Shown: positions 3,012 to 47,465 of the stretch, in pieces
Layout of the letters: each line of letters starts with the position of its first letter
Numbering within the stretch: the first letter of the stretch is position 1
Source: an uncultured Candidatus Saccharibacteria bacterium
Lineage (GTDB): Bacteria > Patescibacteriota > Minisyncoccia > Phycocordibacterales > JACOZG01
Reading direction: 5' to 3'
Length of the DNA: 64,000 bases
Assembly: GCA_964360815.1 (NCBI GenBank)
Contig: CAYHYA010000001.1
Span: 5,574 to 69,573 of the forward strand
Translations under genes and position numbers: made by a program
Notes under the pieces: model-generated
Told to the model about the DNA's origin: nothing
The model's database searches: none
Seen by the model: the letters and a program-made list of their open reading frames with translations, nothing else

Positions 3012-3028
3012 AATCTCAATGATAACAC

Positions 3029-3057
3029 AAAAACTCCCCCATGAAGGGGGAGTTTTT
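3029..3057. terminator. Bidirectional intrinsic terminator (AAAAACTCCCCC-atgaa-GGGGGAGTTTTT)
   Basis: Perfect 12-bp stem with flanking A-run and T-run, between the 3' end of 3107..5245 (-) and the start of 1056..3011 (-). Confidence 0.7.
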
Positions 3058-3106
3058 GCTAGCTAGTAACTAAAGCTATTCTACTAGACTTCTATCTAAT
3101 CTAAGT

Positions 3107-5245: not shown

Positions 5246-5540
5246 AATTTTTACTTAATCTAATAATTTTACGCCGTATCGAACCGAAACGGCTATTGCT
5301 ACTAATTTTCTAAAACCTCTTGCGTCTCACGTAATTTTAAGATGCGAAACCAAGAGGACTTTAGCAAGATAAATAGGAGTAACAGGAATATTTGGTTGTC
5401 AAAGACCGCCAACGCGAAACAGTATACTACAACCTGGCAAGCGCTCGGCAAAACCCTTGTGGATAAATAGCCGATCGGCCAAGTTAGAGCAGTATAGCGG
5501 AAGCGACTAGAGGCGTCAATCCGTCAAACGCTCGGGGCGA

Positions 5541-6197
5541 CTAGACTTTACTATAGCGGCTCCAGCGCCGTTCGCCGGTTTTCTTAACCAAGCCAGCAGT
5601 GGTGAGATCAGTTAGTTCCCGTTGAACGGTTTTACCGCTAAATTCGGGTAAACTTTTAGCCACTTCTTTAATGGAGAGCCAGGCGCCCGGCCGAAGCGAT
5701 TGTAGGATGGCCGCCCGGCGATCGGCTTTGGTTTTCTTGTTTCCAGCCGTCGGTCCTAGCCGACGGGCTTTAGGGCCAGTTTTTAGCCGGCGCGCGGGCA
5801 AAACTTTAGCGGTTGGGGTCGGTAAGGTTGTCGCCGACTCAAATAGAGCCGAAAGATTGTTCGGTTCATGATTAAGCCAGTTTTGAAGCACCAGATATTC
5901 TTGACGCAACAGAGCAAAATTCATGGCTGAGGCCTGACGATCAAAAGTGGTAACATCAATCAAGGACAGCAATTTGGTGATATCGGACAAAGATTGGCCC
6001 GAGTTAGTGGCGAGCAATGCGAGCAAAACATCTAACGCCTTTTCTCTTAACCGCCACTTGATCTGGTCGTTGTCTGATAGGAAATTGGTGACTAAATATA
6101 AAGCCGAGGCGAGTTTTTCGGCTTTAAGGACAATTGGAGTTTTGTCTTTTATGTCCTTTTCTGGCATCTTGTCCTTTATTGAGCGTTCACCGGTCAT
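5541..6197 (-). CDS. Hypothetical protein with C-terminal winged-helix DNA-binding domain
   Basis: C-terminus WLSIKEVAKSLPEFSGKTVQRELTDLTTAGLVKKTGERRWSRY resembles an ArsR/DeoR-type wHTH. No family was recognised for the N-terminus. Confidence 0.35.
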   Translation of the reverse strand: MTGERSIKDKMPEKDIKDKTPIVLKAEKLASALYLVTNFLSDNDQIKWRLREKALDVLLALLATNSGQSLSDITKLLSLIDVTTFDRQASAMNFALLRQEYLVLQNWLNHEPNNLSALFESATTLPTPTAKVLPARRLKTGPKARRLGPTAGNKKTKADRRAAILQSLRPGAWLSIKEVAKSLPEFSGKTVQRELTDLTTAGLVKKTGERRWSRYSKV

Positions 6198-6277
6198 TTG
6201 TCTTTTATTATATCTAGGACAAGAGAAATGTCCATTAAATTAGGGCGGGGTGAGTCGGTTTGCTATAATCGTCAGTA

Positions 6278-8368
6278 ATGAAGCGATCGAAAACCCTGGA
6301 GCAGGTTGGCGAGGGGACGAAACATGGCGTCTTAGCGATTGCCGCTTTCGTCTTGGGGATCTTTTTCGTGTTGGCCAGTTTTGACCGCGCCGGCCGGGCC
6401 GGCGCTGGTTTACACCAATTTTTACGTCTGGTTTTTGGTTGGGGGTTTTTCCTATTTCCGGCCGTGCTGTTTTTCATCGGTTTGGCTTTACTGAAAGCCC
6501 TGCGTCCGCAAACTTTGAAACTGAAGCTTTGGGGTGGCGCGGTGTTTTTTATCGGCGGTCTCGGCCTGCTCGACCTCCTCTTTAACGCCGGTGGTTTGGT
6601 TGGTCAACTTCTGGCTAAACCGCTAATCGCTCTCTTTGATCGTTCGATCAGTGTGGTCTTTTTCGGTGCTTTAATTGTGACGGCGGTGTTAATTATTTTC
6701 GACACCCAGTTAACGCTCGAACGTTCGCTTTTTGGTTGGCGCCGCCGACCGAAAGTCGTTGCCGGTGAAGACGAAATGACCGTCAACGATCAGTTTGTCG
6801 GCGACAATAAATCGTTGCCGATCAAAGACTCCGGTTCAAGCGTCAGCAAGAGTCCAAACATCAAAGAAAACATCGAGTCGGAAACCGCCCCGCTCACGGC
6901 GGCGATTAAAAACAGCGGTCAAGGGAATCCATCGGAGTTTCGACCCCTGCCGCTTTCATTACTCGAGCGCGACGTGGGCAAACCGGTCTCGGGCGACATT
7001 AAAGCCAACGCCAACATTATTAAACGGACGCTGGCCAATTTCGGCATCATGGTGGAAATGGACGAAGTTTCGATCGGCCCCTCGATCACCCGCTACGCGC
7101 TCAAGCCGGCCGAGGGCGTGAAGCTCTCGCGAATCATTGCGCTCCAAAATGATTTGGCCTTGGCCCTCGCCGCGCACCCGATCCGCATCGAAGCGCCGAT
7201 CCCCGGCCTGTCGCTCGTTGGCATCGAGATCCCAAACCGCACCAAAGCGACGGTTGGTTTGGCCCCACTGCTCGGTTCCGCCGCCTTCTTGAATTCGCCA
7301 CTGTCGCTCTTGGTCTCGCTTGGCCGCGATATCTCCGGCGCGCCGCACTTCGCCAACCTTGCGCGCGCGCCACACATTTTAATTGCCGGTTCAACCGGCT
7401 CCGGCAAATCGGTGGTCATCCACACTTTCATCACTTCCCTGCTTTATCGCAATTCGCCGCAAGCATTGCGCCTGATTATGATTGATCCGAAACGCGTCGA
7501 GCTCACGCTGTACAACAAAATTCCTCATCTCTTAACGCCGGTGGTCACTGACGCGAAGAAGGCCATCGCCACGCTCAAGTGGGCCACGCAGGAAATGGAA
7601 CGGCGTTACGGCGTGCTCGAACAAGAAGCGGTGCGCGACATTCAGTCTTATCACAAAACCAAACCGGAAAACGTTTCTGAAATGCCTTACATCGTGATCA
7701 TTATTGACGAATTAGCCGACATTATGACCCGTTACCCACGCGAGCTCGAGGCGGTGATCGTCCGCTTGGCCCAAATGTCGCGCGCGGTCGGTATCCATCT
7801 CGTACTCTCGACGCAACGGCCATCGGTGGAAGTGATCACCGGTTTGATTAAAGCCAACATCTCCTCGCGCGTGGCTTTGCAAGTGGCCTCGCAGATTGAT
7901 TCGCGAACCATCTTGGACATGGCCGGCGCCGAAAAATTGCTCGGTTCGGGCGACATGCTTTATCTCTCCGGCGAACGCTCGAAGCCGTTGCGTTTGCAAT
8001 CGGCGTTTGTATCGGAGCCGGAGGTGAAGAAGGTGGTTGACTGGCTGGCGAGGAATTATAGCGACCGCCTGCCGGACGAATTACCGATCACCGAGCTTAA
8101 TCAAAAAAACGATTTAGGGTCGGGGTTGGATGAAGCGTTTGGCGACAATGGCGATGATGACGAACTTTATGAGGAAGCGCGCGAGATCGTCATCAGCGCC
8201 GGCAAGGCCTCGGCTTCTTATCTCCAGCGCCGCTTAAAAATTGGCTACGCCCGCGCGGCGCGACTACTCGATCTGCTCGAAGAGCATGGCGTGGTCGGTC
8301 CGGGCGAGGGCGCTAAACCACGGCAAGTTTTTGAAAGTTCGACCACGAACTCGGCCGAGACGGTGTGA
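6278..8368 (+). CDS. ftsK: DNA translocase FtsK/SpoIIIE
   Basis: N-terminal TM segments, a linker, then the motor domain with Walker A IAGSTGSGKSV and IMIDPKRVEL, and a C-terminal gamma-domain-like wHTH. Confidence 0.85.
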   Translation: MKRSKTLEQVGEGTKHGVLAIAAFVLGIFFVLASFDRAGRAGAGLHQFLRLVFGWGFFLFPAVLFFIGLALLKALRPQTLKLKLWGGAVFFIGGLGLLDLLFNAGGLVGQLLAKPLIALFDRSISVVFFGALIVTAVLIIFDTQLTLERSLFGWRRRPKVVAGEDEMTVNDQFVGDNKSLPIKDSGSSVSKSPNIKENIESETAPLTAAIKNSGQGNPSEFRPLPLSLLERDVGKPVSGDIKANANIIKRTLANFGIMVEMDEVSIGPSITRYALKPAEGVKLSRIIALQNDLALALAAHPIRIEAPIPGLSLVGIEIPNRTKATVGLAPLLGSAAFLNSPLSLLVSLGRDISGAPHFANLARAPHILIAGSTGSGKSVVIHTFITSLLYRNSPQALRLIMIDPKRVELTLYNKIPHLLTPVVTDAKKAIATLKWATQEMERRYGVLEQEAVRDIQSYHKTKPENVSEMPYIVIIIDELADIMTRYPRELEAVIVRLAQMSRAVGIHLVLSTQRPSVEVITGLIKANISSRVALQVASQIDSRTILDMAGAEKLLGSGDMLYLSGERSKPLRLQSAFVSEPEVKKVVDWLARNYSDRLPDELPITELNQKNDLGSGLDEAFGDNGDDDELYEEAREIVISAGKASASYLQRRLKIGYARAARLLDLLEEHGVVGPGEGAKPRQVFESSTTNSAETV

Positions 8369-8382
8369 TTACTTGACTGGTC

Positions 8383-8742
8383 ATGCGAACGATTTTTTTC
8401 CCCCGTTACTTGCTCCTCGTTATCTTTTTTATTTTGGTGGCCGGCTATACCGTCTACCAGTTGTCTGGGCTCTTCCGTCAACCGACTCTCGTGATTGAGC
8501 AACCGACCGATGGCCAAACCGTCACGGACGAACTGCTTGTGATTCGCGGACAAACCACCGGCTTGTCTGGCCTGACGGTCAATGACGAAAAATTGATTAT
8601 GGACGAGCGGGGTCAATTCGAGACTAAATTGCTCCTCGCCGCCGGTTATAATACAATCAGGGTCACGGGAACCGATCGGTTTGGCCGGATAATTACTAAG
8701 AAATTACAACTTGTTTATGCCCAAGAAAGAGAAGGAAGTTAA
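8383..8742 (+). CDS. Small membrane-anchored hypothetical protein
   Basis: N-terminal TM helix ([17 protein letters not shown]) followed by a beta-rich ~80-aa domain. It lies between ftsK and recA. Confidence 0.35.
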
Positions 8743-9748
8743 GTCAAGTGGTGTTGGGATTGAAGAAACTATTCATTCGATCCAGAGCCGCTTCGGCGAA
8801 GGCGCGATTATGAAGCTCGGCGACCAGCCGAAAGTTGGGGTCGGAGCGATGCCGACCGGATCGCTCGGCCTCGACCTCGCGCTCGGGATCGGCGGCGTGC
8901 CTCGCGGCCGGATTATTGAAATTTACGGTCCGGAATCGTCGGGTAAAACCACGCTCGCCCTGCACGTTGTGGCCGAAGCCCAACGCGCCGGTGGCATCTG
9001 CGCCTTTATTGCCGCCGAACACGCGCTCGATCCCGATTATTCGCGCCGGATCGGGGTGAAGGTGGACGACCTTTTGATTTCCCAACCCGACTACGGTGAA
9101 CAAGCCCTCGAGATCGCCGAGAGTTTGATCCGCTCGGGCAAAATTGACGTGATCGTGATTGACTCGGTGGCCGCCCTAACGCCGAAAGACGAGATCGAGG
9201 GCGACGTGGGTGCTTACCATGTGGGCAAGCAGGCCCGTTTAATGTCGCAGGCCCTGCGGAAGATGACGGCGATTGTGGCTCGATCGAAAACTGTGGTTAT
9301 CTTTATTAACCAGATCCGGATGCAGATCGGCGTGATGTTTGGCAATCCGGAAACGACGCCGGGCGGTAAAGCCCTGAAATTTTACTCCTCGGTGCGGCTC
9401 GACATTCGTCGCATTGCCCAAATTAAAAAAGGTGAAGAGGTGGTGGGTGGTCGCGTGCGGGTTAAGGTGGTCAAGAATAAAGTGGCCGCACCGTTTAAGG
9501 TGGCCGAATTTGATATTCTCTACAATGAAGGGATCTCACCCGAGGGCGAAATTATCGCGCTCGGCGAAAAGCAGGGTCTGGTGACAAAAAGCGGCACCTC
9601 CTACAGTTATCAACCGAAAGACAAAGACGGCAAGCCGCAGGGCGAAGAGATCAAGCTCGGGCGCGGCTATGACGCGGCGCGCACGTTCCTTCGCGATAAT
9701 CCGAAAATAAAAAGCGAGCTAGAAAAAAAGATTCGACTTCATGCTTGA
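8711..9748 (+). CDS. recA: Recombinase RecA (the start is more likely the ATG at 8717)
   Basis: [26 protein letters not shown] Walker A region, and L2-loop and C-terminal regions typical of RecA. Confidence 0.9.
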
Positions 9749-32581: not shown

Positions 32582-33601
32582 CTAGATCGAGCCAAAAGAC
32601 AAAGAACGCAAAAGATGCTGGCGTATTTTGTGTCCACGACAATGCTTTAGCACACCTAGATACGAAGTAAGATTGGCGGGAGTGATCTCGTCCCGATCCA
32701 ACCGCCGTAAAATGCGCCTTTTGGTCCGCGTTCGCAAAACTCGATAATGCGGCCGGGCGACGTACCCCAGATAATCAATTCCTTGGTGCAACTTACGAAT
32801 GATAATTTTGTCGGGATGCAAAGAAAGATTTAATTTGTTTTTCAAAAAATCAGAAATTGGCCAAATCAGGTTTTCTAAATAATCACGGCTTTGATGGACG
32901 ATGACAAAATCATCACAGTAACGCAGGTAATATCTGGCCTTAATTTCGTGTTTAATAAATTGATCAAGTTCGTTGAGATAAATGTTGGCAAAAAGCTGAC
33001 TGGTTACATTGCCCAGCGGTAAGCCACAACCAGGGATGATAGCGAAGCTCTCAACGACCGATCGAATTAGAGTGATAACACGGCTATCACCGATTACCTT
33101 TTCAATCAATGACAACAAGATAGCATGATCAATATTATCAAAAAACTTTTGAACATCACATTTTAAGGCGTAGCTTTGTGAATGATAATTACCACTGATC
33201 TTGCGAACAAAGGATTCTAGACGACTTACTCCACGATGCACTCCTTTGTTGAAGCGACAAGAATACGAGTCGTAAATAAAATGCCGATCAAAAAAATGGT
33301 ACAGTCCACGGAAAAGTGCTTGGTGTAGAACTCGGTCGAGCACCGGGGCCTTGTGGATATGACGTATCTTTGGGTCCCGAACGTAAAAAGATTGGTAGGA
33401 GGAGGGATGGTAAGCGTCGGAGACCAGATCAGCATGAAGTTTAAACAAATTATTTTCTAAATCGAACCCGAACTCCAAAACTTTGATTTTTTTGATTTTG
33501 CCGCGCTTGAATTCTCGCCAGGCATTGAGTAAATTAGACAGCGACACAACATGCTCCCACAACGACCAAGTAGACCCCCCCCCAACAGATTTCCTTGCCA
33601 A
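32582..33601 (-). CDS. Diversity-generating retroelement (DGR) reverse transcriptase
   Basis: RT motifs 1-7 with YCDD. Motif 4 reads LGNVTSQ, the DGR-specific [ILV]GxxxSQ that replaces QGxxxSP. 339 aa. The cognate TR and VR lie directly upstream. Confidence 0.8.
   Translation of the reverse strand: MARKSVGGGSTWSLWEHVVSLSNLLNAWREFKRGKIKKIKVLEFGFDLENNLFKLHADLVSDAYHPSSYQSFYVRDPKIRHIHKAPVLDRVLHQALFRGLYHFFDRHFIYDSYSCRFNKGVHRGVSRLESFVRKISGNYHSQSYALKCDVQKFFDNIDHAILLSLIEKVIGDSRVITLIRSVVESFAIIPGCGLPLGNVTSQLFANIYLNELDQFIKHEIKARYYLRYCDDFVIVHQSRDYLENLIWPISDFLKNKLNLSLHPDKIIIRKLHQGIDYLGYVARPHYRVLRTRTKRRILRRLDRDEITPANLTSYLGVLKHCRGHKIRQHLLRSLSFGSI
33575..33583. repeat. Homopolymeric C9 (G9 on the coding strand) inside codons 7-9 (GGG) of the DGR reverse transcriptase
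   Basis: Read directly: tagacccccccccaacag. The minus strand atggcaaggaaatctgttGGGGGGGGGtct encodes MARKSVGGGS. Confidence 0.8.
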
Positions 33602-37154: not shown

Positions 37155-37832
37155 CTAGATTGGCTGACCATTAACTGAAACCACAACCGCTTTAACCGTG
37201 GAGAATTGTTTGAGTGTTTCTGTGATTTGCGCTTTCAAGGTCGCAGCCAAACAGGTTTGTTCGGCGGCCGGCTCAAGCGCCGCCAACTCGCGGCTGAAGT
37301 CGGCGCGCGCCACGCCGCCAGCAATCGTCAAACTCTGAAGTTTGGTTTCGGAATTGATCGCGGTCGAGAGGCCGATCGCGGCATCGCTTGGCGAAACACC
37401 CTTCAGTAATTCGAGCAGGGCCGCGCGACCGACCGCCGAAGTTCGGGCGACGGTTCGGGCGATCGGCAAAACCGCCTGGCAACGCTCGCCCTGCGGATCA
37501 AGATTTTTATTGCGGAAATAAACACGGATGACCAGCGGTCCGGAAGTCGGCGCGGCCACGGCCGCGAGGTTGGTGTTAACTGGCGGCGGGTTTGAAACTA
37601 CCGACACGGGGTTGTCGGTCAAAGAAGTCGGGGCGGTTACCGACTCATCGGCATTTGTTCCCGTCTCTGATTCCGGTGATTCTAATTCAGTCGGGAGATC
37701 GCTCGGGGAATCACTGGGACGCAGAATCGGCCAAAGAATTACGCCGACAACCAGAATAATAATGATGATTAACCAGAGATTGCTTTTGCTATTCTTACCG
37801 TTCGGTGCCTGCGTTGGTACTGGTGTGGCCAT
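37155..37832 (-). CDS. Membrane-anchored protein with C-terminal GerMN-like domain
   Basis: N-terminal TM helix, a Pro/Ser/Thr-rich linker, then VRVYFRNKNLDP...ARTSAVGRAALLELLKGVSPSD...VSVNGQPI, a GerMN-like pattern. Confidence 0.4.
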   Translation of the reverse strand: MATPVPTQAPNGKNSKSNLWLIIIIILVVGVILWPILRPSDSPSDLPTELESPESETGTNADESVTAPTSLTDNPVSVVSNPPPVNTNLAAVAAPTSGPLVIRVYFRNKNLDPQGERCQAVLPIARTVARTSAVGRAALLELLKGVSPSDAAIGLSTAINSETKLQSLTIAGGVARADFSRELAALEPAAEQTCLAATLKAQITETLKQFSTVKAVVVSVNGQPI

Positions 37833-38150
37833 GTTTAGATTTAGCTAACGAAAAAATTAATAATAACCCGCATTCTAGCAGATTGAAAAATTTAAGCAAA
37901 TTAGGGTCAAAGAAAGCACCGTTCTCCCATGAGGATGGACGGTGCTCTCCGGAGGGGAAAGAAGCTATTATTTAAACACAATTCCTATTTAAGGTTACAC
38001 CCAACGACGGCTCTGGTAAAGAAAAACTGTGCATAACCATCGAGAGCGAAAACTTGGACAAACCAGTTCAGATATGTTAGCGTGAGGGTGGGTCTTTTCC
38101 GGTGACGTTAGCCGGATCAGACTTTTTTGGTCTTTACGAGGAGGAACAGC

Positions 38151-38510
38151 GTGGGGCAATGTAAACGACTAGCAAGACGACTGAAGGAACTGCGGGATCG
38201 GGCCTATATAAGTACGGGTGATCCAGAAGGGATTATTGACGTTGTTGAATCGCTTCTCACTTCTGATTATCTATCCGCCATAGGAACAAGTAGGGCTGAG
38301 CTATTAAGGTTGGCCCACCTCAATCTGTCGGGGTGTATCTTGGCGTTGATGGTAAAAAGATTGCCACCGGAAGAGTTTGAGAAACTCGCGGAGACGACAA
38401 GGGGTGCGATAGACAGAGAATATCTTGTTCCAAAAAATCTAGCTTCCGAGGATGAACAGTTGATCGATAGTCTCATTAGACAACCACAAGGCGAAACGGT
38501 GCTTGTCTAG
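38151..38510 (+). CDS. Hypothetical protein (the start is likely the GTG at 38151, preceded by AGGAGG)
   Basis: ORF with a strong RBS (acgAGGAGGaacagcGTG). No family recognised. Confidence 0.35.
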   Translation: MGQCKRLARRLKELRDRAYISTGDPEGIIDVVESLLTSDYLSAIGTSRAELLRLAHLNLSGCILALMVKRLPPEEFEKLAETTRGAIDREYLVPKNLASEDEQLIDSLIRQPQGETVLV

Positions 38511-38559
38511 AAACAAAACATTCAATCCCCCGGCGAAAGCAAAACTTTCGCCGGGGATT

Positions 38560-39579
38560 TTATTTCTCCCCTAACTCCGGATAAACTTCGAGTAGTTTTT
38601 GTAGGAATAATTTTTTGGCCGCGGGCATAGGCATCTTTAACACGGCCCCGGCGGCGGCGCGATGGCCGCCGCCGCCTAGCGCGGCGGATAATTTAGAAAC
38701 GTCAAACCTCTCCGCATCGCGCGTCCGCAAGCTCACCCGGATAATCTCCGGTTCGGACTCGGTTAGCGTCGCGCCGATCTCCCAGCCAACCACCGACTTC
38801 AGACGGTTGGCGATACTGATCCCTTGAGTGTCTTCGTAACGCAAACCGTGCGCCGCCCGTTGTTCAAGCGATAGAGCCACCAACGCCACTCGCCCACCGC
38901 CAAATACTTCGATCGAGCTTAGGGCTAGGCCCTCGTAAGTTAGTTGGCCGCAGGAATTGTTATTTTCTAACTGGAAAAGCAAAGCTGGAAAATCAGGCGC
39001 CAGTTTGACCAGTTCGGCGGCGGCAAGGAAGGTAGCCGCGGTCGTGCCCGGGTAACGGAAGCCGCCAGTGTCGCCGAAAATGCCGAAAAATAAATTGGTG
39101 GCGCTGGCCGGGGTTAGTTTAATTTCCCAAAGTCGGAACAACTCATAAAGAATCTGGCTGGTGGCCGGATAATTTGTGGCCACCAGATTGATCTGGCAAA
39201 ACGGTTTAGTGGTGACATGATGATCGATCAGGATTGTTTTGAGCGTTGGCGGAAAAGTAACTTGGCCCAAGCTACTGATTCGTTCCGGCGCACCAACATC
39301 TAAAACCAAAAACAGGCCGAAGCTGGCCGGATCAATTTCCAAATAATTTTTTGGCACGATGCTTTCGTAACCCGGGAGAAAAGAGAGGTATTCGGGCATG
39401 GGCGAATCACCCTTGATCACGACGGCCTCTTTGCCGAGCGCGCGCAGAACGTGAGACATGGCTAGCGCCGAACCAACCGAATCCGGATCAGGGTGAGGGT
39501 GGAGGTGAAGCAAGACCCGCTTGGCTGATTTGATGACGGTAAAAATTTCTCGCGCCAGTTTCTCTTGCTCGTTAGTCAT
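38560..39579 (-). CDS. nrnA: DHH/DHHA1 phosphoesterase (NrnA-like oligoribonuclease / pAp phosphatase)
   Basis: HPDPDSVGSALA (DHH motif I), IDHH, and the C-terminal DHHA1 GGGHRAAAG. Confidence 0.75.
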   Translation of the reverse strand: MTNEQEKLAREIFTVIKSAKRVLLHLHPHPDPDSVGSALAMSHVLRALGKEAVVIKGDSPMPEYLSFLPGYESIVPKNYLEIDPASFGLFLVLDVGAPERISSLGQVTFPPTLKTILIDHHVTTKPFCQINLVATNYPATSQILYELFRLWEIKLTPASATNLFFGIFGDTGGFRYPGTTAATFLAAAELVKLAPDFPALLFQLENNNSCGQLTYEGLALSSIEVFGGGRVALVALSLEQRAAHGLRYEDTQGISIANRLKSVVGWEIGATLTESEPEIIRVSLRTRDAERFDVSKLSAALGGGGHRAAAGAVLKMPMPAAKKLFLQKLLEVYPELGEK

Positions 39580-39661
39580 ACTCTCAAGTAAAGCAGACGA
39601 AAAGAAAAACCACCAGCAACCTCTACGGTTACTGGTGGGTGTGGTGTGCGCTTGTATTCCG

Positions 39662-40309
39662 TTAATTTAGTGTTTTGATGATTTTGTTCCAGAAATCGCG
39701 TCCACGTCTGAACCAATCTCGTCGGCGGAGAACAGCAACACTCGCTCCCAACAGAGAGAGGGTTCCTGGTTCCGGAATCGGCGTGCCGCGGAGAACAAAA
39801 GAATCAAATCCCATTCGATCGCCAGCGGAGGAAAAATCTCCGATTAGACGAAAAGCGAAATTAGGATTATCGCTGGCTTCCGGCGGCAGGGCCAGAGATT
39901 CTAAAATCCAGTCGCTTTCGTTCATGTTCGTGTAGAAAGCAAGTGGTTTCCAATCTTTCGAATCGGGGGTCCACTCAACTCGCATCACGTCATCAATCTC
40001 GAGCGCCCCCCTAACCTGTTCGGCAAACTCCAAAATCAAACCATGAAAGCCGACCGTGGAAATTTCAAGAAGCAGCGTGCCGTCCGGCCCACCACTTATT
40101 CCACTAAAGTCGGCGCCCCAGTCTCCCTCGAAGGCCGCCGCATCAGACGAGATAAGTTGCCATCGCCCATTAGCACCGGTCCATCGATCAAATGCTTGAT
40201 TGGGGCCGCTGATTTCGAATCCATCCTCGAATAGAATATCGGCCGAAACCCCCCCCACCATCAACAGAGGTAAGAGTAAAACCAGTCGCGACTTTCTTCT
40301 TCCACCCAT
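39662..40309 (-). CDS. Secreted protein with C-terminal PEP-CTERM sorting signal
   Basis: Signal peptide MGGRRKSRLVLLLPLLMVGGVSA. C-terminus IPEPGTLSLLGASVAVLRRRDWFRRGR is PEP followed by a TM helix and an Arg-rich tail. Confidence 0.55.
   Translation of the reverse strand: MGGRRKSRLVLLLPLLMVGGVSADILFEDGFEISGPNQAFDRWTGANGRWQLISSDAAAFEGDWGADFSGISGGPDGTLLLEISTVGFHGLILEFAEQVRGALEIDDVMRVEWTPDSKDWKPLAFYTNMNESDWILESLALPPEASDNPNFAFRLIGDFSSAGDRMGFDSFVLRGTPIPEPGTLSLLGASVAVLRRRDWFRRGRDFWNKIIKTLN
40249..40256. repeat. Homopolymeric C8 (G8 on the coding strand) in the signal-peptide codons of the PEP-CTERM protein
   Basis: Read directly: gaaaccccccccacca. The minus strand gtgGGGGGGGtt encodes VGGV. Confidence 0.8.
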
Positions 40310-40425
40310 AAACTGTCTCCTTTTCTCAAAAACAAAACACTAAAAACCCAAGACACGCGCCCGGGTCTTCTTCAAGTTCAAGGATCAACTTAATCCGGTG
40401 AGGATACTAACACAACTAGATTAAA

Positions 40426-41043
40426 TTATCTAGAGTCAAACAAATCGCTGTTGGGAAAACGGATTTTCGGTTTCGGCTTCTCGCTCGCGTGACGGTAGCC
40501 AAGTGCGAGCAGGGCTTTCGGGAAAAAATGTTCGGGTAGCTTAAGAACGGTCTTCACGCCAGCCGGATTGAAACCCTCCATCGGGCAAGCATCAATTTCG
40601 AGTTCAGCGGCGGCGGCCAGAGCGAAGCCGAGCGCGAGATAAGTCTGGCGCGCCGCCCAACTCTCGGCGGCCGGCGCATCAAGACCAGCGGCGAAATCGG
40701 TCATCATTTTTTCATACCCCGCCAGCGTCGCCCGAAGGGCGGCTTGGCCGCCGGTGGCCAGTTCAAAATAAGCGTTGATCCGATCCGAGATGTCGGTGCG
40801 AGCCGAGAAAACGAGCAAATGCGAGCCGGTCGTCACCTGTTCCTGACCCCAAGCCAAATCCTTTATTTTTTCGCGCAAGTCTTTGTCCGTGACGATTGTC
40901 ACATGGAACGGTTGCAACCCGAACGAAGTCGGGGCCAAACGGACCGCCTCAAAGATTTTGGCCAGTTTGTCCGGCGCGATCGTTCGACCATCAAACTTTT
41001 TGGTAGCATAACGCCAAGAAAGATTATTTAAAAATGATGGCAT
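40426..41043 (-). CDS. Nitroreductase-family NAD(P)H oxidoreductase
   Basis: RYATKKFDGRTIAPDKLAKIFEAVRLAPTSFGLQPFHVTIV is the nitroreductase fold signature. Confidence 0.7.
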   Translation of the reverse strand: MPSFLNNLSWRYATKKFDGRTIAPDKLAKIFEAVRLAPTSFGLQPFHVTIVTDKDLREKIKDLAWGQEQVTTGSHLLVFSARTDISDRINAYFELATGGQAALRATLAGYEKMMTDFAAGLDAPAAESWAARQTYLALGFALAAAAELEIDACPMEGFNPAGVKTVLKLPEHFFPKALLALGYRHASEKPKPKIRFPNSDLFDSR

Positions 41044-41278
41044 GTTTTAAAAGTAAGTTAAGCGTAACAAAAAAAGGGCCCGAGTGCAAACAGCACCACG
41101 GGCCCCAGAAATATCACTCGCGACAACGACACAATCATCATACACAACCAACAACGACCAAAAATCAAATCATCGCTTTTTCCTCCTTTCTTTTCCCATT
41201 TAAAGACAGCTCGATTCTATGTCAGATACTATCGTAAACCATCACCAAATCAAAGTTGTCGCTTGTGGATAAATTGAT

Positions 41279-42364
41279 TTAGTGACCAAAGATGATGTTG
41301 GCCAGGTCGCGACGAACGGCATTGATTGCCCGACTATCGGCCGGCGGATGTGGATAGGTTCGATTGGTCAACATGACGAACGCTCGCCCGCCAACCGGAT
41401 CAACCGCGATCAGGGTACCGGTAAAACCGGACTTGTAGAAAATTCGCCGGTCGTCAGGTAAATCAATCATTTCTGACTGGCCGATGGCCCAACCCAATCC
41501 AGCTGTCCGATTTATTGACCCTTCAAGCTGGTTCGTGGACATCGCCTCGACCAGGTTTGCCGAAAAATATTTCCGGCCACCCTTAATCCCCTTGTTCAAG
41601 AGCATCGCCAAAAATTTAAGTAGGTCCGGCGCGGTCGAAAACAGGCCAGCAATGGCCGTGGGCCTCTTTTTCCCGAGAACGAAGGCGGCTTCATCGTGAA
41701 CCACGCCGCGGACCTCTCTCTTGCGCCAAATATCGTCAATCTCGGTCGGAGCAATGCCCGCGGACAGGTGTGTCTCGGGCGAATAGTTGGTCCGCGCCAT
41801 TCCCAGGGGGTTGAAGAATTTTTCGGCAGCGAGGCGGTCGAGGCGAGATCCGGTAACTTTCTCGACCACCAAACCGATCAGCAGGGCGGTCGGATTGGCA
41901 TAGACATGGTGACTACCGGGCGGGCATTTAAGCGGCGCCTTAAAAACAGTCTCCCAAATTGCCTCGGCCGAATGTCCGGTGCGAGCCAATTCCGAGAGTG
42001 CTGGCAGTTCAAGATCGAGGGTGTAGGTTAACAGGTGCCAAATTGTGACCGCCTGTTTGTTTTCCTCGGTTCCGAACTCCGGTACATAACGAACCAACGG
42101 ATCGTTTAGTTTGACCTGGCCACTGTCGATCAGCTGTAAGAGTAAGGACGTTCCGACAACCGATTTAGTCAGCGAGGCCAGATCATAGACCGTTTCTGTT
42201 TCAACCAACGGCGAGTCGAGGTCGTAAGTCAGTCGGCCGACTGGCACGATTTGCTGTCCACCATTGGAATGAACCAATCCGACCACGCCACCCGGGAAAA
42301 CCCGGTCGGCAATGGCCAGTGCCAATCGCTTGGTAATGAATGATAGAAGTCCGACTTCCATCAA
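41279..42364 (-). CDS. Serine hydrolase of the beta-lactamase/PBP4* family
   Basis: SxxK motif (DLASLTKSVVG) and class-C-like length. Confidence 0.65.
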   Translation of the reverse strand: MMEVGLLSFITKRLALAIADRVFPGGVVGLVHSNGGQQIVPVGRLTYDLDSPLVETETVYDLASLTKSVVGTSLLLQLIDSGQVKLNDPLVRYVPEFGTEENKQAVTIWHLLTYTLDLELPALSELARTGHSAEAIWETVFKAPLKCPPGSHHVYANPTALLIGLVVEKVTGSRLDRLAAEKFFNPLGMARTNYSPETHLSAGIAPTEIDDIWRKREVRGVVHDEAAFVLGKKRPTAIAGLFSTAPDLLKFLAMLLNKGIKGGRKYFSANLVEAMSTNQLEGSINRTAGLGWAIGQSEMIDLPDDRRIFYKSGFTGTLIAVDPVGGRAFVMLTNRTYPHPPADSRAINAVRRDLANIIFGH

Positions 42365-43299
42365 GTTTTTAAAAGCGCCCGCATCATTCGGGTTAAACCA
42401 ATCCCGCCGCCAAAACGAGGAAAAAATTTTAGCGATAAGAAATCTTCCAACTCACGTTCAACTCGCGCCCGGCCGAAGTGCTCGAAAAGTAGTTTGGCAT
42501 AAGCCCCGTCACTGATAGTGTGGAATTGTTTGCGCATTACCTCTGGATCGACGCTCCGTTCAGCCGAACCAATTGTCTCCATACCGGCGATGATCACGTC
42601 AATTTTGTGGGCATGTTTGCCATTCTTCATCATATTCCAAAACGGCGAGGTGTGAAGCGGAAAACGCTCCAGGAAAAAAACTGGCCCAAACTCTTCGGAC
42701 ATTTCGCGCTCGTGCTCGCTGGTTAATTCCGATGCTTCGTAATAATCGGCCATCTCGTCATAAGTGCGATGCGGATAATTCCGCCGGTCGCCGAAACCAA
42801 GATGTTCGCAGAGTTCGGCTTCGAGCTGGCGGAGGTCATCAATCGTACCAGCGGATTCAAATTCAAACATCGGGAAAATGATTTCGTGTCGACCAGGGAT
42901 CGGATTTTTCTCATTGCGATAACTGGTGCTGACACAAAAGACCCCGGGTAGAGACGGGTCGTTCAAAAGTTCGTATTCGAGCCACATTTGTCCGGTTTGC
43001 GGCAAGGGCCAAGTTTCTCCGGCGTAGTCGTAAGTGGCAATCGTTGTCGGATCCTCGCAGGCAGCCAAAATACTTAACCGATCTTGAGTGTGCACTTCGT
43101 GGAAACCTTTACCCAGGAAAAATTGTCGGAGCTTGTTCACTGTTTGGCTATAACCTTTCACGTTTTTTGTCGCTCGATAATTATTGATCATATTTTGGCA
43201 AAAAAATAACCCCGCGGTGGTGGGGGTGACTAACTTTTTAATAACTTGATTAATAAATACTGACCAAAACTTTTTTTCATATTCGCTAGATTGTAGCAA
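42361..43299 (-). CDS. Class-II aaRS-like catalytic-core protein without anticodon-binding domain; best guess is AsnA-type aspartate-ammonia ligase
   Basis: Motif-2-like YRNEKNPIPGRHEIIFPMFEFE and motif-3-like FGGGIGLTRMMRALL (close to E. coli AsnA GGGIGQSRLTMLLL). 312 aa. Confidence 0.4.
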   Translation of the reverse strand: MLQSSEYEKKFWSVFINQVIKKLVTPTTAGLFFCQNMINNYRATKNVKGYSQTVNKLRQFFLGKGFHEVHTQDRLSILAACEDPTTIATYDYAGETWPLPQTGQMWLEYELLNDPSLPGVFCVSTSYRNEKNPIPGRHEIIFPMFEFESAGTIDDLRQLEAELCEHLGFGDRRNYPHRTYDEMADYYEASELTSEHEREMSEEFGPVFFLERFPLHTSPFWNMMKNGKHAHKIDVIIAGMETIGSAERSVDPEVMRKQFHTISDGAYAKLLFEHFGRARVERELEDFLSLKFFPRFGGGIGLTRMMRALLKT

Positions 43300-43342
43300 C
43301 CCTGCCCCAAGCTGGAGAAGAAGAAAGGTGGATATCTACGAT

Positions 43343-45131
43343 CTAATGCAGTCCGATTTGATATTCGTAAAGTCGGCGATAGGCACCAGCCGGTCGCGTG
43401 ATCAGTTCCTCGTGTGTGCCCGTTTCAACGATTTTTCCTTTCTCGAAAACGAGGATCAGGTCGGCTCGACGAACTGTTGACAGGCGATGCGCGATGATAA
43501 AGGTGGTCCGTCCGCGCATTAGTGCTTCCAGCGCTTCCGTGACAATTTTTTCGGTCGCCGCACCAAGAGCGCTCGTTGGTTCATCGAGAATCAGGATGGC
43601 TGGCTCGCGCAGCATGGCTCGAGCAATCGCCACGCGCTGTTTCTGGCCGACCGACAACTTAATTCCCCGCTCGCCGACCACCGTCTCATATTTCTCGGGA
43701 AACTTTTCCACAAAATGGTCAATGTGGGCCTCTTTAACCACCCGCTTAAACACCTCGTCGGCTACGGCGAATGTGCCGTAACGAATATTTTGTCCAATCG
43801 TGTCGTTGAAAAGTGCGATCTCTTGTGGCACCACGGCGATCTGGCGGCGTAAACTGGTTAGGTTGAGCTTGCGGGTATCTATTCCGTCAACCAACACCGC
43901 ACCGGTCGTGGGAAAGTAGTAACCAGAAATCAAAGAAACGGCCGTTGATTTGCCAACCCCCGACTCGCCAACCAGCGCCACGGCCTGTCCGGGTTTAATT
44001 GCAAAGTTTAAATTTTCCAGCACTAGCGGTTGAGTCGGTGCGTAGGCAAAAGAAACGTTATTGAAAGAGACGGCGCCCTTCAAACTCTCTGGCGTAACAG
44101 CGTTAGTGGGAAGATAAATTTCTTCCGGTTCTTCAAAAATCTCTTCGGCGTGGGCGGCGGCCGTGATGCCGTTCTGGACCGTTTGCCAACTGTGCCCAAG
44201 CGCCACGAACGGCCCAAAAAACATCATCGCGTAACCGTTAAGCGCCACGAGCTCGCCAACACTAATCATCTGACTCGCGATCAAACGAACGGAAAAAATG
44301 AACACGGCCAATTGGGTGAGGAAAACAATTGTTCGCTGGAAAAAGCTAACGTTGTTCCAACGTCGTTCGAGCTTTAACCAAACATCACGCGTTTTTTCCA
44401 ATAAATTAGTTTCAACTTTTTTGGTCTCATAATCTTCACTGGAGGCCTGTTTAACACTTTCGATTTGCTGAACCACCGCGGCCGCGTCATCCCAACCCTG
44501 ATTCCAGGAACGATGCGCTAGCGAGTCCAGTGCCGCGACTGGTCGAATCATTTTGATTAAAATTATGGAGTAAAACAAAACTCCGAGAGCTAAAATTCCA
44601 GCCAACGAGTAATTAATCTTGGCGGCCAAAACAATCCCGATGATTACGCTTAAAAATTGCGGGGCCACAGCAACAACTCGATTCATAATTGCCGACACCC
44701 GCCAGCCGGCCTGACTAATTTTCAAGAGCTCACCGTTGATGTGCGTGTTCTTATGATAATTTAGCGGTAAGCGAAAGAGGCGGCTAAAACCATCGGTTTG
44801 AATTTTGAAGTGAAGTGTGATGTCTAGGTGACGGCGCAACCGATCCATGAACCAAAATATTGTTGGCCACGAGTTGGATGACGACCCAGATCAGAAGCAG
44901 AGACGTCCAGAGCGGCAAAGAATCAATGTTTTGATCCGCGACCCCCTTCGACACTTCAATCAGGGCATCAAAAAATCGTCCGGTGACATAAGGGACCGAA
45001 CCGTTGGCCAAAGCCGAGACCAACCCGAGAAAAGTTAGCAGAATTAATTCATTCTTAAACGGCCGGAGGTGGCGACGAATCGCTCGCAACCCTTTCCTAA
45101 CTTCACCTTTTTCCTTGATCGTATTTTCCAT
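43343..45131 (-). pseudogene. ABC exporter (fused TMD-NBD, MsbA/Sav1866-like) interrupted by a frameshift near 44784..44850
   Basis: The ORF at 44784..45131 encodes a typical N-terminus with TM1-2 and stops. The ORF at 43343..44848 continues in another frame with TM3-6 plus the NBD (Walker A GESGVGKST, LSVGQKQR, ILILDEP). The two ORFs overlap by 65 nt. Confidence 0.5.
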
Positions 45132-45159: not shown

Positions 45160-45468
45160 TCACCTTCGCTCAAGAGCACGCAACACCGTGGCGGAAACAA
45201 AATCCTTTCGTGCCTCACCTAACACGGGTAATACCGCCAGCACAGATGCGTTTTTTGTAGGAATAAGTTCAACCTTTCCTCCGTTAAACTCAGTGAGATG
45301 GGTTAAAAACTCATCAAGCCATGACGGAGTAACAGTAAGCACTCCATCAAAATCGACCTGAATTGGTGTATCAGGATTAAGTTGTGGACGAATAGCATTA
45401 AATGCCTCTAGTCCTGCTGGGCGAGAAACGAGTACTGTGCCAAATTTTTTAAGTTGAATAGTTTGCAT
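45160..45468 (-). CDS. STAS-like (DUF4325-type) small protein, a putative partner-switching antagonist
   Basis: 102 aa, with no recognisable motif beyond the STAS-like length and pattern. It lies immediately downstream of the GHKL-ATPase gene. Confidence 0.35.
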   Translation of the reverse strand: MQTIQLKKFGTVLVSRPAGLEAFNAIRPQLNPDTPIQVDFDGVLTVTPSWLDEFLTHLTEFNGGKVELIPTKNASVLAVLPVLGEARKDFVSATVLRALERR

Positions 45469-45480
45469 TTGTAATATTTT

Positions 45481-46206
45481 CTAAAACATTATAACCGCAT
45501 ATGCCCCACGAACATTCCCGTCAGCCATTTTGATGCGCATCGGTCCGGGGCTAGTGGGAATATTGACGACACCGACACCAGAGCGAAACAAGAGGCCGAC
45601 CTCCTTTGATTCAGCGACCCGGCGAACGACCTTGAGTCCATTACCGCGCTTCTCGGGATTTCTCCCTGAAACTATTTCTGTAAAAGCCACATTAAGGGCG
45701 TCGACATCGGTGTCGAGATTTGGCCTAACCTGTTTAAGTGTAGTTTTGACACCACGCCCCCGATCCGCAAGAACAATAATCCGCTTAGCAATACTATACG
45801 CGTAAAATATACCTGACACATCGGGCCAATTACCAACATTGTGGGCGAAGGAGTTGTCGCCAATTTCTCCTGCAACCAGGGTAACCAGCGAAGCTAAATC
45901 TTCTGAAACCTGGCCAACGTTCTGTAGTTCAGCACCCATCTTGGCAACTCGACTAGTGAAGCGATCTGATCGTTCGCAATAATACTCACTCGGGAGCTCT
46001 GGGGGCAAGGCGCTTGTTGCCCAGGCCAACCCCAATAACTGCAGGTTAAGGGCAAAACTCTTTAGATCGCCTAAGGCGTAATAACGTTGTTTCCCCACAC
46101 TCCGCTCGGAATTAAGCCGACCAGATTTCTCCCAGTTACGTAGGGTTTGCACTGATACGCCTAGTATCTTTGCGGCCTCTCCTACCCTCACTTTTCCCTC
46201 ATTCAT
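45481..46206 (-). CDS. MerR-type HTH fused to a GHKL (HATPase_c, RsbW-like) domain
   Basis: N-terminus VGEAAKILGVSVQTLRNWEKSGRL (MerR HTH). C-terminus GEIGDNSFAHN...ADRGRGV...GNGLKVV (N, G1 and G2 boxes of the GHKL ATPase/kinase). Confidence 0.5.
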   Translation of the reverse strand: MNEGKVRVGEAAKILGVSVQTLRNWEKSGRLNSERSVGKQRYYALGDLKSFALNLQLLGLAWATSALPPELPSEYYCERSDRFTSRVAKMGAELQNVGQVSEDLASLVTLVAGEIGDNSFAHNVGNWPDVSGIFYAYSIAKRIIVLADRGRGVKTTLKQVRPNLDTDVDALNVAFTEIVSGRNPEKRGNGLKVVRRVAESKEVGLLFRSGVGVVNIPTSPGPMRIKMADGNVRGAYAVIMF

Positions 46207-46393
46207 AACGTTATACTATACGATAAACCTATAAAAGTCAACAAATATTAGCAGGTTTAGTTGTAAAACCTACAATTTTGAGATAATGATGGAAGTCCGA
46301 CTTTCATCATTACAAAGGCCTTGCTACATTTTCACGAAGGCGATCTTTAAAACTTTCATTCCTTCTGTAGATTAGTATCAATTAAGACGGCGA

Positions 46394-47308
46394 TTAAATT
46401 TGATATACAACATGAGTCTTTTTGATAGTATCCACTCGTTTGAAACTTCTCTTCAAAAAATCCTGCCCCACATTTTCAGAACCCTGTAATGACAAAAGCC
46501 TGGTGTGAATAAGTTTTTCTTTCAGACATCTAAGACCTTCCCATAATAAATATCTCATTAAATTAGACTGATTTTTATTAATTATTGCATTAGCAAAAGT
46601 TACTATATCCATTGGAGTGTAGAATGAAACCGCGATCAATTTCCCATCGTTAAAATGAGAAAATCGTTGCTTGTTTTCTATTTCTTCCGAAAAGAAAAAA
46701 TTATGTGCATCTATGACTTCTTTAGAGTTTTCGGCTCCCTTCTTGTTCAGATGGTCAGCATAATCACGCAAAAGCTTTCTATCCTCATTTTCATGGTCTT
46801 TAGAATAATCACTGCTTACTATTCCCTGTTCTTTTTTAAACTTGCGGATAACTCGAATCGTAGAGTGACGTACTGAATCGGGCTTTAAATTTAAGATTGA
46901 ATCAAAATCAGATACATATTCCGGAAATGTGTTATCGTCTCTAAATGAAAATTTACTCCATGGTTCAGTAGTTTCTATAAAACCTACGGCTTTCAAATCT
47001 TCAAGTTCTTTGAGATCAACATTTTTAACTAAAATTGAGCACTTTTCCTTTGTGTCGGCAATAAAATTGCTCAATATTTGTTGCCGATCTTTCCCTAATC
47101 TATTTACTACAACAAGCTGATTGTCTTTTGGTCGAAAATATAAAATCGACCCATCTTTTTCATATACAAAGCCCGTATCTCTTGTTGATTGAATAATGTA
47201 CGGCCAGTTATTCTCAAATGATAACTTGCCTACTTTAGACTTTTTTAGATAGTCGTAAAATAGCTTCTCATCATTAGATTTAATTGGTCTTACATTTGGC
47301 ATATCCAT
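46394..47308 (-). CDS. AT-rich hypothetical protein (304 aa), likely horizontally acquired
   Basis: The ORF and its flanks (46210..47390) are visibly AT-rich compared with the neighbours. It sits immediately 3' of tRNA-His. No family recognised. Confidence 0.4.
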   Translation of the reverse strand: MDMPNVRPIKSNDEKLFYDYLKKSKVGKLSFENNWPYIIQSTRDTGFVYEKDGSILYFRPKDNQLVVVNRLGKDRQQILSNFIADTKEKCSILVKNVDLKELEDLKAVGFIETTEPWSKFSFRDDNTFPEYVSDFDSILNLKPDSVRHSTIRVIRKFKKEQGIVSSDYSKDHENEDRKLLRDYADHLNKKGAENSKEVIDAHNFFFSEEIENKQRFSHFNDGKLIAVSFYTPMDIVTFANAIINKNQSNLMRYLLWEGLRCLKEKLIHTRLLSLQGSENVGQDFLKRSFKRVDTIKKTHVVYQI

Positions 47309-47390
47309 TTTAGTATCCTCATATCCAAGTTTATCGGGTTGAAACTGATTTCACAGCTTAATAAAAAGCTATTTTTTAAAAATCCTCAAG

Positions 47391-47465
47391 TGGGGTGCTC
47401 GGAGGGAATCGAACCCTCATTACCGCCTCCACAGGGCGGAGTTTTACCACTAAACTACGAGCACC
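47391..47465 (-). tRNA. tRNA-His (anticodon GTG) with genomically encoded G-1 and 3' CCA
   Basis: Folded by hand: acceptor GUGCUCG/CGAGCAC, extra 5' G pairing with C73, D-stem GUUU/AAAC, anticodon stem CCGCC/GGCGG with loop CUGUGGA, T-stem GAGGG/CCCUC with loop UUCGAUU, and CCA. Confidence 0.85.

Follow-up and report, generated by a model that had tools for sequence, protein, structure and literature searches.

The window analysed here is a 64,000-nucleotide (nt) stretch of contig CAYHYA010000001.1 from GenBank assembly GCA_964360815.1 (uncultured Candidatus Saccharibacteria bacterium). Directly 3' of a tRNA-His gene it carries an AT-rich open reading frame (ORF) of 304 amino acids (aa), followed by the genes for a helix-turn-helix (HTH) protein with a GHKL kinase-like domain and for a small STAS-like protein. 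A first-pass annotation, made from the letters alone, had described the three genes as one AT-rich islet and suggested horizontal acquisition. The locus raises two questions: do these genes share an origin, and what do the kinase and the STAS protein do together? To the first, a plausible if finely balanced answer is that two things of different origin adjoin here, a foreign AT-rich gene and a self-contained two-gene module. To the second, the pair is a new architectural variant of recently described kinase/STAS regulators, and there is about an even chance that it works as an autorepressed phospho-switch with the kinase itself as the DNA-bound component and the STAS protein as its modulator.

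The genes of the window place its source genome in the Candidate Phyla Radiation (CPR)/Patescibacteria, bacteria with tiny genomes and few recognisable regulators, and metagenome contigs from the Hainich aquifer (well H51) match the window at 99.9-100% identity. The tRNA and the three genes were found where the first-pass annotation had placed them, in this order along the minus strand:

47391-47464, minus strand: tRNA-His, anticodon GTG (ARAGORN)
46394-47308, minus strand: AT-rich 304-aa ORF (ORF call)
45481-46206, minus strand: 241-aa ORF, the HTH-kinase (ORF call)
45160-45468, minus strand: 102-aa ORF, the STAS protein, DUF4325 type (ORF call)

The stop codon of the kinase gene is separated from the start of the STAS gene by 12 nt. 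The compositional shift noted in the first pass holds for the 304-aa ORF, with a GC content of 0.329 against 0.505 +/- 0.036 in 49 other ORFs (z = -4.9) and a GC content at third codon positions (GC3) of 0.289, but not for the pair. The kinase gene is host-typical (GC 0.501, GC3 0.479) and the STAS gene somewhat low (GC 0.44, GC3 0.30). Since the low-GC stretch is limited to about 46150-47390, that is the 304-aa ORF and its flanks, the islet consists of one gene and does not carry the kinase/STAS pair.

The kinase/STAS pair, its distribution and its operators

The MerR-type HTH of the 241-aa protein is recognised by Pfam (PF00376, 5e-12). The kinase touches a single GHKL model of Pfam, HATPase_c_2, with E = 0.015 (15.7 bits, below the cut-off of 27.4), and the 102-aa protein reaches E = 0.0015 with DUF4325 (18.6 bits, below the cut-off of 23) and has no match to Pfam STAS or STAS_2. 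PADLOC matched the HTH only (mad1, N-terminus of a type II methyltransferase) and left the GHKL domain and the STAS protein unmatched. A sequence search of solved structures gave MerR-type HTHs only for the kinase and nothing for the STAS protein; the CapS/VapS entries 9Z71-73 and 9Z7O were not found by it. The AlphaFold2 models of both proteins are confident, with a predicted local distance difference test score of 86 for the kinase and 94 for its partner, and fold searches with these models confirmed both domain guesses: the fusion of an HTH to a GHKL domain and the STAS-like partner are real. For both proteins the best solved-structure matches are SpoIIAB/SpoIIAA and RsbW/RsbV, so the likeness to RsbW/RsbV proposed at first sight holds.

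In the kinase, residues 1-55 form a MerR/Xis/BldC-type HTH, residues about 56-100 a conserved helical linker of two helices only (W62, YYCE-x-DRF), and residues about 100-241 a SpoIIAB/RsbW-like GHKL domain. The ATP-binding motifs (N box E114..N118..H122N123; G1 box D148-R-G-R-G152; G2 box G188-N-G190) are invariant in 67 homologues. The 102-aa protein is a single-domain STAS fold with a conserved T47-P48-S49-W50-x-D-E-F motif where helix 2 begins, Ser49 and Thr47 being conserved in at least 90% of 48 sequences. Relatives of the kinase differ in their N-terminal module, which may be a MerR HTH (proteins of about 240 aa), absent (about 195 aa), an ArsR-type winged HTH (wHTH), a cytidylyltransferase or a STAS domain. 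Relatives P0289, P0272 and P0382/P0383 have the kinase domain fused to a cytidylyltransferase-like domain, an ArsR-type wHTH or a STAS domain.

Searches returned 1,660 homologue clusters for the kinase, those listed being full length and 65-83% identical (Magasanik-, Uhr-, Kaiser-, Komeili-, Adlerbacteria and others), and 428 for the STAS partner, 73-88% identical among the matches listed. A scan of one genome per species found at least 286 carriers among 185,579 species representatives, nearly all of them Patescibacteria, a lower bound set by the exact peptide patterns used. The carriers fall into two tiers of identity, 52-82% and 45-49%. When the kinase domain was searched by itself with HMMER, exhaustively, against 1.84 billion proteins, no more than 281 clusters (50% identity) came back. 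The locus analyses cover 160 loci, namely 80 species-representative loci kept of the 286 carriers and 80 metagenome loci.

Kinase and STAS gene go together as an obligate operon of two genes. Of the 80 species-representative loci, 78 have the STAS gene on the same strand immediately after the kinase gene, both exceptions being contig ends, and it also follows immediately in 77 of the 80 metagenome loci with the other N-terminal forms, HTH-less ones included. The surroundings of the operon differ from locus to locus: clusters of the 396 flanking proteins reach six members at most, and among 639 neighbour proteins of the 160 loci there is no conserved third gene and no recurrent linked gene for a sigma factor, a PP2C phosphatase or a PIN protein. 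The commonest neighbour is a large serine recombinase, present in 6 of the 160 loci. Had the locus belonged to a conserved core neighbourhood, orthologous loci in relatives would show the same neighbours, and these vary. A tRNA-His was found upstream of the pair in 0 of 47 loci scanned, and in no other genome does the 304-aa ORF stand beside it. The family is missing from the collections of phages, plasmids and IMG/VR; phages gave HTH-level matches only, plasmids and IMG/VR none.

Between the window and the closest species representatives amino-acid identity is 80-86% and identity at four-fold sites only 0.38-0.49, and the GC content of the pair follows that of the host (difference 0.002 +/- 0.048 in 61 loci, hosts 0.31 to 0.58). 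Nearly saturated synonymous sites and GC that tracks the host speak for an old divergence under strong purifying selection; recent transfer between classes was rejected on the same grounds as the cause of the high identity. In the one genome pair compared, the window and L017, NusG is 66% and ribosomal protein L11 60% identical, against 81% and 86% for the two proteins of the module. Identity to the window disregards taxon labels, with 76-80% in Magasanik- and Uhrbacteria and 68-72% in Kaiser-, Nomura- and Zambryskibacteria. Together with the variable contexts this makes transfer over long timescales likely. The pair is an old module under strong constraint, present in hundreds of CPR species, where it has neither tRNA-His nor the 304-aa ORF as a neighbour. 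A switch kept at 65-88% identity across classes, and in that genome pair above NusG and L11, likely matters to CPR biology.

These results bear on the simplest alternative, that of an ordinary, vertically inherited CPR housekeeping regulator which stands by chance beside a tRNA and a foreign gene. The host-like GC, the old synonymous-site divergence and the presence of the family in many CPR classes agree with it, as does partial synteny with an ABC exporter in one other locus (L055). On the other side, neighbours are not conserved even in the closest relatives, the recovered carriers are only 286 of the 185,579 species representatives (again a pattern-limited lower bound), and identity to the window is out of step with taxon labels. 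A core-gene reading is weakened by the varying neighbourhoods and by the transfer evidence from contig L010 given below, which this alternative has to take for an assembly chimera; we regard it as improbable.

The regulatory DNA of the pair was compared across the same loci. At almost every locus a near-consensus sigma-70-type promoter (TTGACT, a 17-nt spacer and a -10 element) lies upstream of the kinase gene. In the window the following elements were located:

46213-46241, minus strand: promoter TTGACT-17-TAGTAT (promoter scan)
46225-46235, minus strand: operator half-site TTTATAGGTTT within the promoter spacer (motif search)
46250-46274, minus strand: upstream inverted-repeat operator TGTAGGTTT-N7-AAACCTGCT (motif search)

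The start codon follows 6 nt past the -10 element in the window, and of the 54 loci with such a promoter (54 of 80 loci) 42 have it at 6-9 nt, which implies a leaderless mRNA. The spacer begins with TTTATAGGTTT. In many loci this forms an inverted repeat, TTTATAGGTTT-N7-AAAC(C/T)TATAAA, with the -10 element serving as the right arm, and the repeat recurs once or twice a little further upstream. The window repeat at 46250-46274 is a degenerate copy of the family consensus TATAGGTTT-N6-8-AAACCTATA. In the 52-82% tier, 54 of 58 loci have the inverted repeat upstream (up to 4 mismatches), and 71 operator sites (up to 3 mismatches) occur in 18 kb of the modules' own upstream DNA versus 0 in 640 kb of flanks. 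The 45-49% tier (L073-L094) has instead three direct repeats TTGCATAGATTT at a spacing of 21-22 nt about 100 nt upstream of the kinase gene, the last of them overlapping the -35 element; a TTGCATAGATTT repeat is found upstream in 17 of its 22 loci. With inverted repeats in one tier and direct repeats in the other, the operator co-varies with the protein subfamily. The 64-kb window has no operator site other than those at the pair's own promoter, and a wider regulon is not visible in the 640 kb of flanks either. Operators that are conserved, co-vary with the subfamily and occur at the own promoter only point, at the level of sequence, to autorepression. The 17-nt spacer and the placing of an operator inside a strong promoter would fit repression rather than MerR-style activation.

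Relation to described kinase/STAS systems and the proposed switch

Conserved autoregulatory operators were not part of the first-pass description, nor were CapK/CapS and VapK/VapS/VapC, which are the closest described relatives of the pair (Chambers et al., EMBO J 2026, PMC13373217). In that work ssDNA (single-stranded DNA) activates CapK (HTH-STAS-GHKL, 368 aa), which phosphorylates Ser54 of CapS (STAS-wHTH), and the phosphorylated CapS dimer leaves its palindromic sites, so that the downstream immune operon is derepressed (PMC13373217). VapK (STAS-GHKL) phosphorylates VapS (STAS plus a tail), whereby the PIN toxin VapC is released, and CapK W68 and VapK F54 lie in the internal STAS domain that forms a predicted ssDNA groove (PMC13373217). 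The capKS genes precede immune operons in 348 of 443 cases and lie directly downstream of restriction-modification (R-M) genes in 88 of 443; the HTH of CapK has no detectable role, the repressor being CapS and not the kinase (PMC13373217). This paper mentions neither the architecture described here nor Patescibacteria, and no other literature found does.

For comparison the CapK and CapS sequences were taken from the reporter plasmid, and those of VapK and VapS from the AlphaFold3 model files in the supplement of PMC13373217. A kinase profile built from 102 family representatives and the window protein scores VapK with 21.2 bits (E = 1e-8) and CapK with 13.7 bits (E = 2e-6), as single-comparison values, and the matches cover the N, G1 and G2 boxes. 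The STAS profile scores VapS with E = 1.2e-5. The STAS-GHKL relative P0382 forms a bridge, matching the window kinase at E = 3e-15, VapK at 3e-6 and CapK at 1e-6, and a gapless alignment from the conserved DF-x-GV strand puts Ser49 of the STAS protein on Ser54 of CapS. The profile links, the bridging relative and the aligned serine together mark the pair as a remote member of the CapK/VapK lineage of kinases with STAS substrates. Remote kinase homology and a downstream STAS gene with a Ser/Thr at helix 2 are shared with that lineage. An internal STAS domain in the kinase, for which residues 56-100 are too short, and an output module on the partner (a wHTH, or a tail with an adjacent toxin) are not found.

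The pair resembles CapK/CapS in that a GHKL kinase with an N-terminal HTH is followed at once by a DUF4325-like STAS gene whose product has a conserved Ser where helix 2 begins, in an operon that is autoregulated through palindromic sites (predicted in the case of the pair); both are at times found directly downstream of R-M genes (for the pair L011/L017). It differs in that its kinase is a 241-aa HTH-linker-GHKL protein without internal STAS domain, so that the predicted ssDNA groove of CapK and VapK is missing. CapS has a wHTH and represses, whereas the STAS protein of the pair has no DNA-binding domain and the sole HTH is on the kinase. The pair also has no conserved downstream operon, and its hosts are CPR bacteria. 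VapK/VapS/VapC gives the best sequence link of all, in the kinase as in the STAS profile comparison, and VapS (116 aa), like the 102-aa protein, is a single-domain STAS partner whose C-terminus forms a short helix; VapK, however, begins with a STAS domain and lacks an HTH, and a VapC PIN gene is always present there, whereas no third gene is conserved here. With its DNA-binding domain on the kinase, the pair extends the kinase/STAS regulators of 2026 to a new phylum-level group in a simpler architecture.

Two further comparisons concern the HTH. BldC binds DNA head-to-tail, and the three direct repeats of the 45-49% tier, about two helical turns apart, recall such binding; BldC/Xis-type proteins stand alone, whereas the HTH of the pair is fused to a kinase. 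MerR proteins differ in having a coiled-coil dimerisation helix, which is missing from the kinase, and MerR-activated promoters have spacers of 19-20 nt and not 17 nt.

In the proposed mechanism the MerR/Xis-type HTH of the kinase would bind the TATAGGTTT-type repeats that flank and overlap its own leaderless promoter and repress it; we infer this binding from the conserved, subfamily-covarying operators at that promoter only. The STAS protein would dock on the GHKL domain as SpoIIAA does on SpoIIAB and be phosphorylated on Ser49, or alternatively Thr47, as the folds, the invariant ATP-binding motifs and the alignment to CapS Ser54 suggest. The bound or phosphorylated state of the STAS protein may then toggle DNA binding by the kinase-repressor, the DNA-binding domain taking the place that a sigma factor has in classical partner switching. 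Derepression would raise expression of the pair and of same-strand genes downstream, here a frameshifted ABC exporter:

43343-45131, minus strand: ABC exporter gene, split by a frameshift (115 aa + 501 aa)

As to the input signal, analogy to CapK and VapK offers ssDNA or DNA damage as a lead. With its operators and leaderless promoter predicted, the system lends itself to direct tests.

Several points weigh against this mechanism. Kinase activity, the phospho-site, HTH-operator binding and the contact between STAS protein and kinase are all inferred, and the similarity to CapK, VapK and VapS is weak and significant for targeted comparisons only. The kinase lacks the very domain that forms the predicted ssDNA groove, and in CapK the HTH is without detectable role and repression is by CapS rather than by the kinase (PMC13373217). 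Relatives of about 195 aa without any HTH keep the STAS partner, so the core of the module is the interaction of kinase and STAS protein rather than transcriptional control, and an unlinked target may exist. Genes downstream of the pair are heterogeneous, and only 29 of 76 lie within 100 nt on the same strand. Purifying selection as strong as that seen here is unusual for a conflict-type regulator, and the transfer described below has neither an att repeat nor an integrase and rests on L010, one short contig.

The HTH-less relatives also bear on a classical partner-switching anti-sigma module, in which the GHKL protein would sequester a transcription factor, sigma or other, whose gene lies elsewhere; the STAS protein would then act as anti-anti-sigma factor, and feedback would be the only task of the HTH. 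Persistence of the kinase-STAS pair without HTH is consistent with a protein target, and the strong constraint would fit contact with conserved core machinery. The fold searches likewise favour it, SpoIIAB/SpoIIAA and RsbW/RsbV having the same ATP-binding motifs and a candidate phospho-serine at the same position, and HATPase_c_2 is the sole GHKL model touched. However, that model stays below threshold, while the family profile scores VapK and CapK better than members of the family score this anti-sigma model; the kinase is fused to a DNA-binding domain, and no linked sigma factor or PP2C recurs among the neighbour proteins. We consider an anti-sigma module quite doubtful.

A module of toxin-antitoxin (TA) or abortive-infection type is another unlikely, though conceivable, explanation. 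One of the two proteins would be growth-inhibitory, for instance the kinase through phosphorylation of an essential target that is not linked to the pair, with the STAS protein as its antagonist or pseudo-substrate and with HTH-mediated autorepression as in type II TA systems. The self-contained operon of overlapping or close genes, the tight autoregulation limited to its own promoter, the variable contexts without a conserved neighbour and the recent transfer seen in L010 are in keeping with such a module. Some loci lie beside type III R-M with T5orf172, Fic, DpdF, type IIG R-M, a GajB-like helicase, a reverse transcriptase or mad2, large serine recombinases are adjacent in six loci, and PIN.4 nucleases are coupled to DUF4325 genes. 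VapS, moreover, is a proven antitoxin of the same STAS type (PMC13373217). Yet the module has neither a toxin-type domain nor a third gene, the collections of phages, plasmids and IMG/VR lack its family, and PADLOC models miss the GHKL and STAS parts. The very high conservation, strong purifying selection and host-ameliorated GC are atypical for TA or defence genes, and GHKL kinases are not known to act as toxins.

Returning to the autorepressed phospho-switch, a bolder form of it may be put forward with considerable reserve. The pair might be a minimal partner-switch in which the kinase is the DNA-bound repressor, the STAS protein its sole antagonist and substrate, and DNA stands in the place of sigma. 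It might then be an ancient, constrained sensor of stress or phage damage, the stripped-down form from which, or towards which, CapK/CapS and VapK/VapS/VapC evolved by domain accretion or loss.

The AT-rich gene and probable exchange at tRNA-His

Direct evidence for the acquisition at the tRNA that the first-pass annotation had suggested comes from L010, a Logan assembly contig of ERR3858113, which is a single short contig of low coverage that ends at window position 45462. L010 has 5 mismatches in 1,996 nt to window positions 47457-45462 (blastn), all of them in the 5' half of tRNA-His. The shared part is:

45462-47423, minus strand: block 100% identical to L010 over 1,962 nt (DNA alignment)

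The block begins inside tRNA-His at 47423, just 3' of the anticodon stem, and spans the 3' part of the tRNA, the 304-aa ORF, the promoter with its operators and the whole kinase gene, and it reaches into the first codons of the STAS gene. Before the block, in the 5' half of the tRNA and the upstream flank, identity falls to about 70%; the flank has an indel of 16 nt, and the C-terminus of the adenosyltransferase encoded there is 73% identical. In L010 the anticodon stem of tRNA-His shows compensatory changes on both strands, and the 5' strand of its acceptor stem (GTACCTA) fails to pair with the shared 3' strand (CGAGCAC), with three mismatches and one wobble. The mismatched acceptor stem and the divergent flank mark the tRNA of L010 as a hybrid, and the block as having entered that genome by recombination within the tRNA. 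This sequence evidence indicates a recent exchange of the 3' end of the tRNA, the ORF and the pair between two related aquifer populations, the breakpoint lying inside tRNA-His. It is rare to see recent gene flow resolved to the base, as the hybrid tRNA shows it here for uncultivated CPR populations of the same aquifer.

That L010 is one short, low-coverage contig speaks for the assembly chimera invoked by the housekeeping reading. If the true acceptor 3' strand of the host differs, the stretch common to the two tRNA versions is about 22 nt, which is shorter than the assembly k-mer, presumably 31, so a chimera is unlikely.

Of the features of a tRNA-targeted island, foreign sequence starting in the 3' part of the tRNA is present. 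The att site that the first-pass annotation had led one to expect did not turn up: no direct repeat of the tRNA-His 3' end was found in the 64-kb window (25-mer and 15-mer, up to 3 mismatches; repeat finder), which leaves the island without an attR repeat. Nor did a Pfam scan find an integrase among the ORFs of at least 150 aa at 37155-45131, up to the core nusG gene; these encode an ABC exporter, a class II aminoacyl-tRNA synthetase-like/AsnA-like protein, and beta-lactamase-family, nitroreductase, PEP-CTERM, DHH and Germane-domain proteins. The transfer may have been site-specific or driven by homology.

The 304-aa ORF itself matches nothing in Pfam, NCBIfam or PADLOC. Among 5.8 billion proteins it has only 10 homologue clusters, at 32-46% identity, one of them named from Paraburkholderia, and the same search gave no other instance in a CPR context. 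Of the homologues one matches PF09924 (LPG_synthase_C/DUF2156) at 6.5e-5 and one the GNAT model Acetyltransf_4. By these matches the protein is probably a distant, tandem-GNAT-like acyl- or aminoacyl-transferase, a weak assignment. One homologue (L095, 6001-7014) lies isolated between long intergenic flanks in an unrelated contig with LigD, LemA and MFS genes, and is AT-richer than its locus (GC 0.31 vs about 0.40). The 304-aa ORF is probably a rare foreign cargo gene.

Position next to a tRNA recurs in the family with differing tRNAs. Four loci of Magasanik-/Uhrbacteria type have a tRNA-Ser that precedes the pair by 330-460 nt in the same orientation:

L018, 7585-7670: tRNA-Ser upstream of the pair
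L020, 7690-7778: tRNA-Ser upstream of the pair
L028, 7584-7670: tRNA-Ser upstream of the pair
L040, 7444-7533: tRNA-Ser upstream of the pair

In other loci a tRNA-Ile, tRNA-Leu or tRNA-Ala is found within about 300 nt of the pair.

Neighbouring genes and minor features

The ABC exporter gene starts 28 nt 3' of the STAS gene on the same strand and is not conserved across loci; L055 has an intact orthologue of 596 aa (67% identity) 2.3 kb downstream of its pair. The frameshifted exporter is a possible read-through cargo of the pair. Its 115-aa fragment is a separate ORF call also in the independent Hainich assemblies L008 and L009.

In L011/L017, the closest Adlerbacteria relative, a type III-like R-M system (N6_N4_Mtase and ResIII helicase, 2775-6811) lies directly before the pair and a T5orf172/GIY-YIG gene (8359-9003) after it. 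The serine recombinase (Resolvase, Recombinase and Zn_ribbon_recom domains) is encoded at L015 9075-10817 on the minus strand and in five other loci, the closest species representative included.

Between the 304-aa ORF and the operator region of the pair the window has one further element:

46286-46310, strand not assigned: 25-nt palindrome ATGATGRAAGTC-S-GACTTYCATCAT (repeat finder, pattern search, hairpin in RNA fold)

It occurs in exactly 2 copies in the 64 kb (42340-42364 and 46286-46310), 0 being expected by chance. The copies bracket a 3.9-kb block with the AsnA-like gene, the split ABC exporter, the STAS gene and the kinase gene. A mini-ORF of 17 codons (MMKVGLPSLSQ...) begins with the second copy, and its product is similar to the first residues (MMEVGLLSFIT) encoded by the beta-lactamase-family ORF in which the first copy lies. 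The palindromes may be a duplication scar or a hairpin terminator. As an operator of the HTH the palindrome was rejected, since the upstream regions read at other loci lack it and have TATAGGTTT repeats instead.

Two further ORFs of the window stand out by domain content or composition. A 339-aa ORF at 32582-33601 (minus strand) has a reverse-transcriptase domain (RVT_1, 7e-21) and a lowish GC of 0.425. A 651-aa ORF at 1056-3011 (minus strand) has the second-lowest GC in the window (0.364) and may be another foreign gene.

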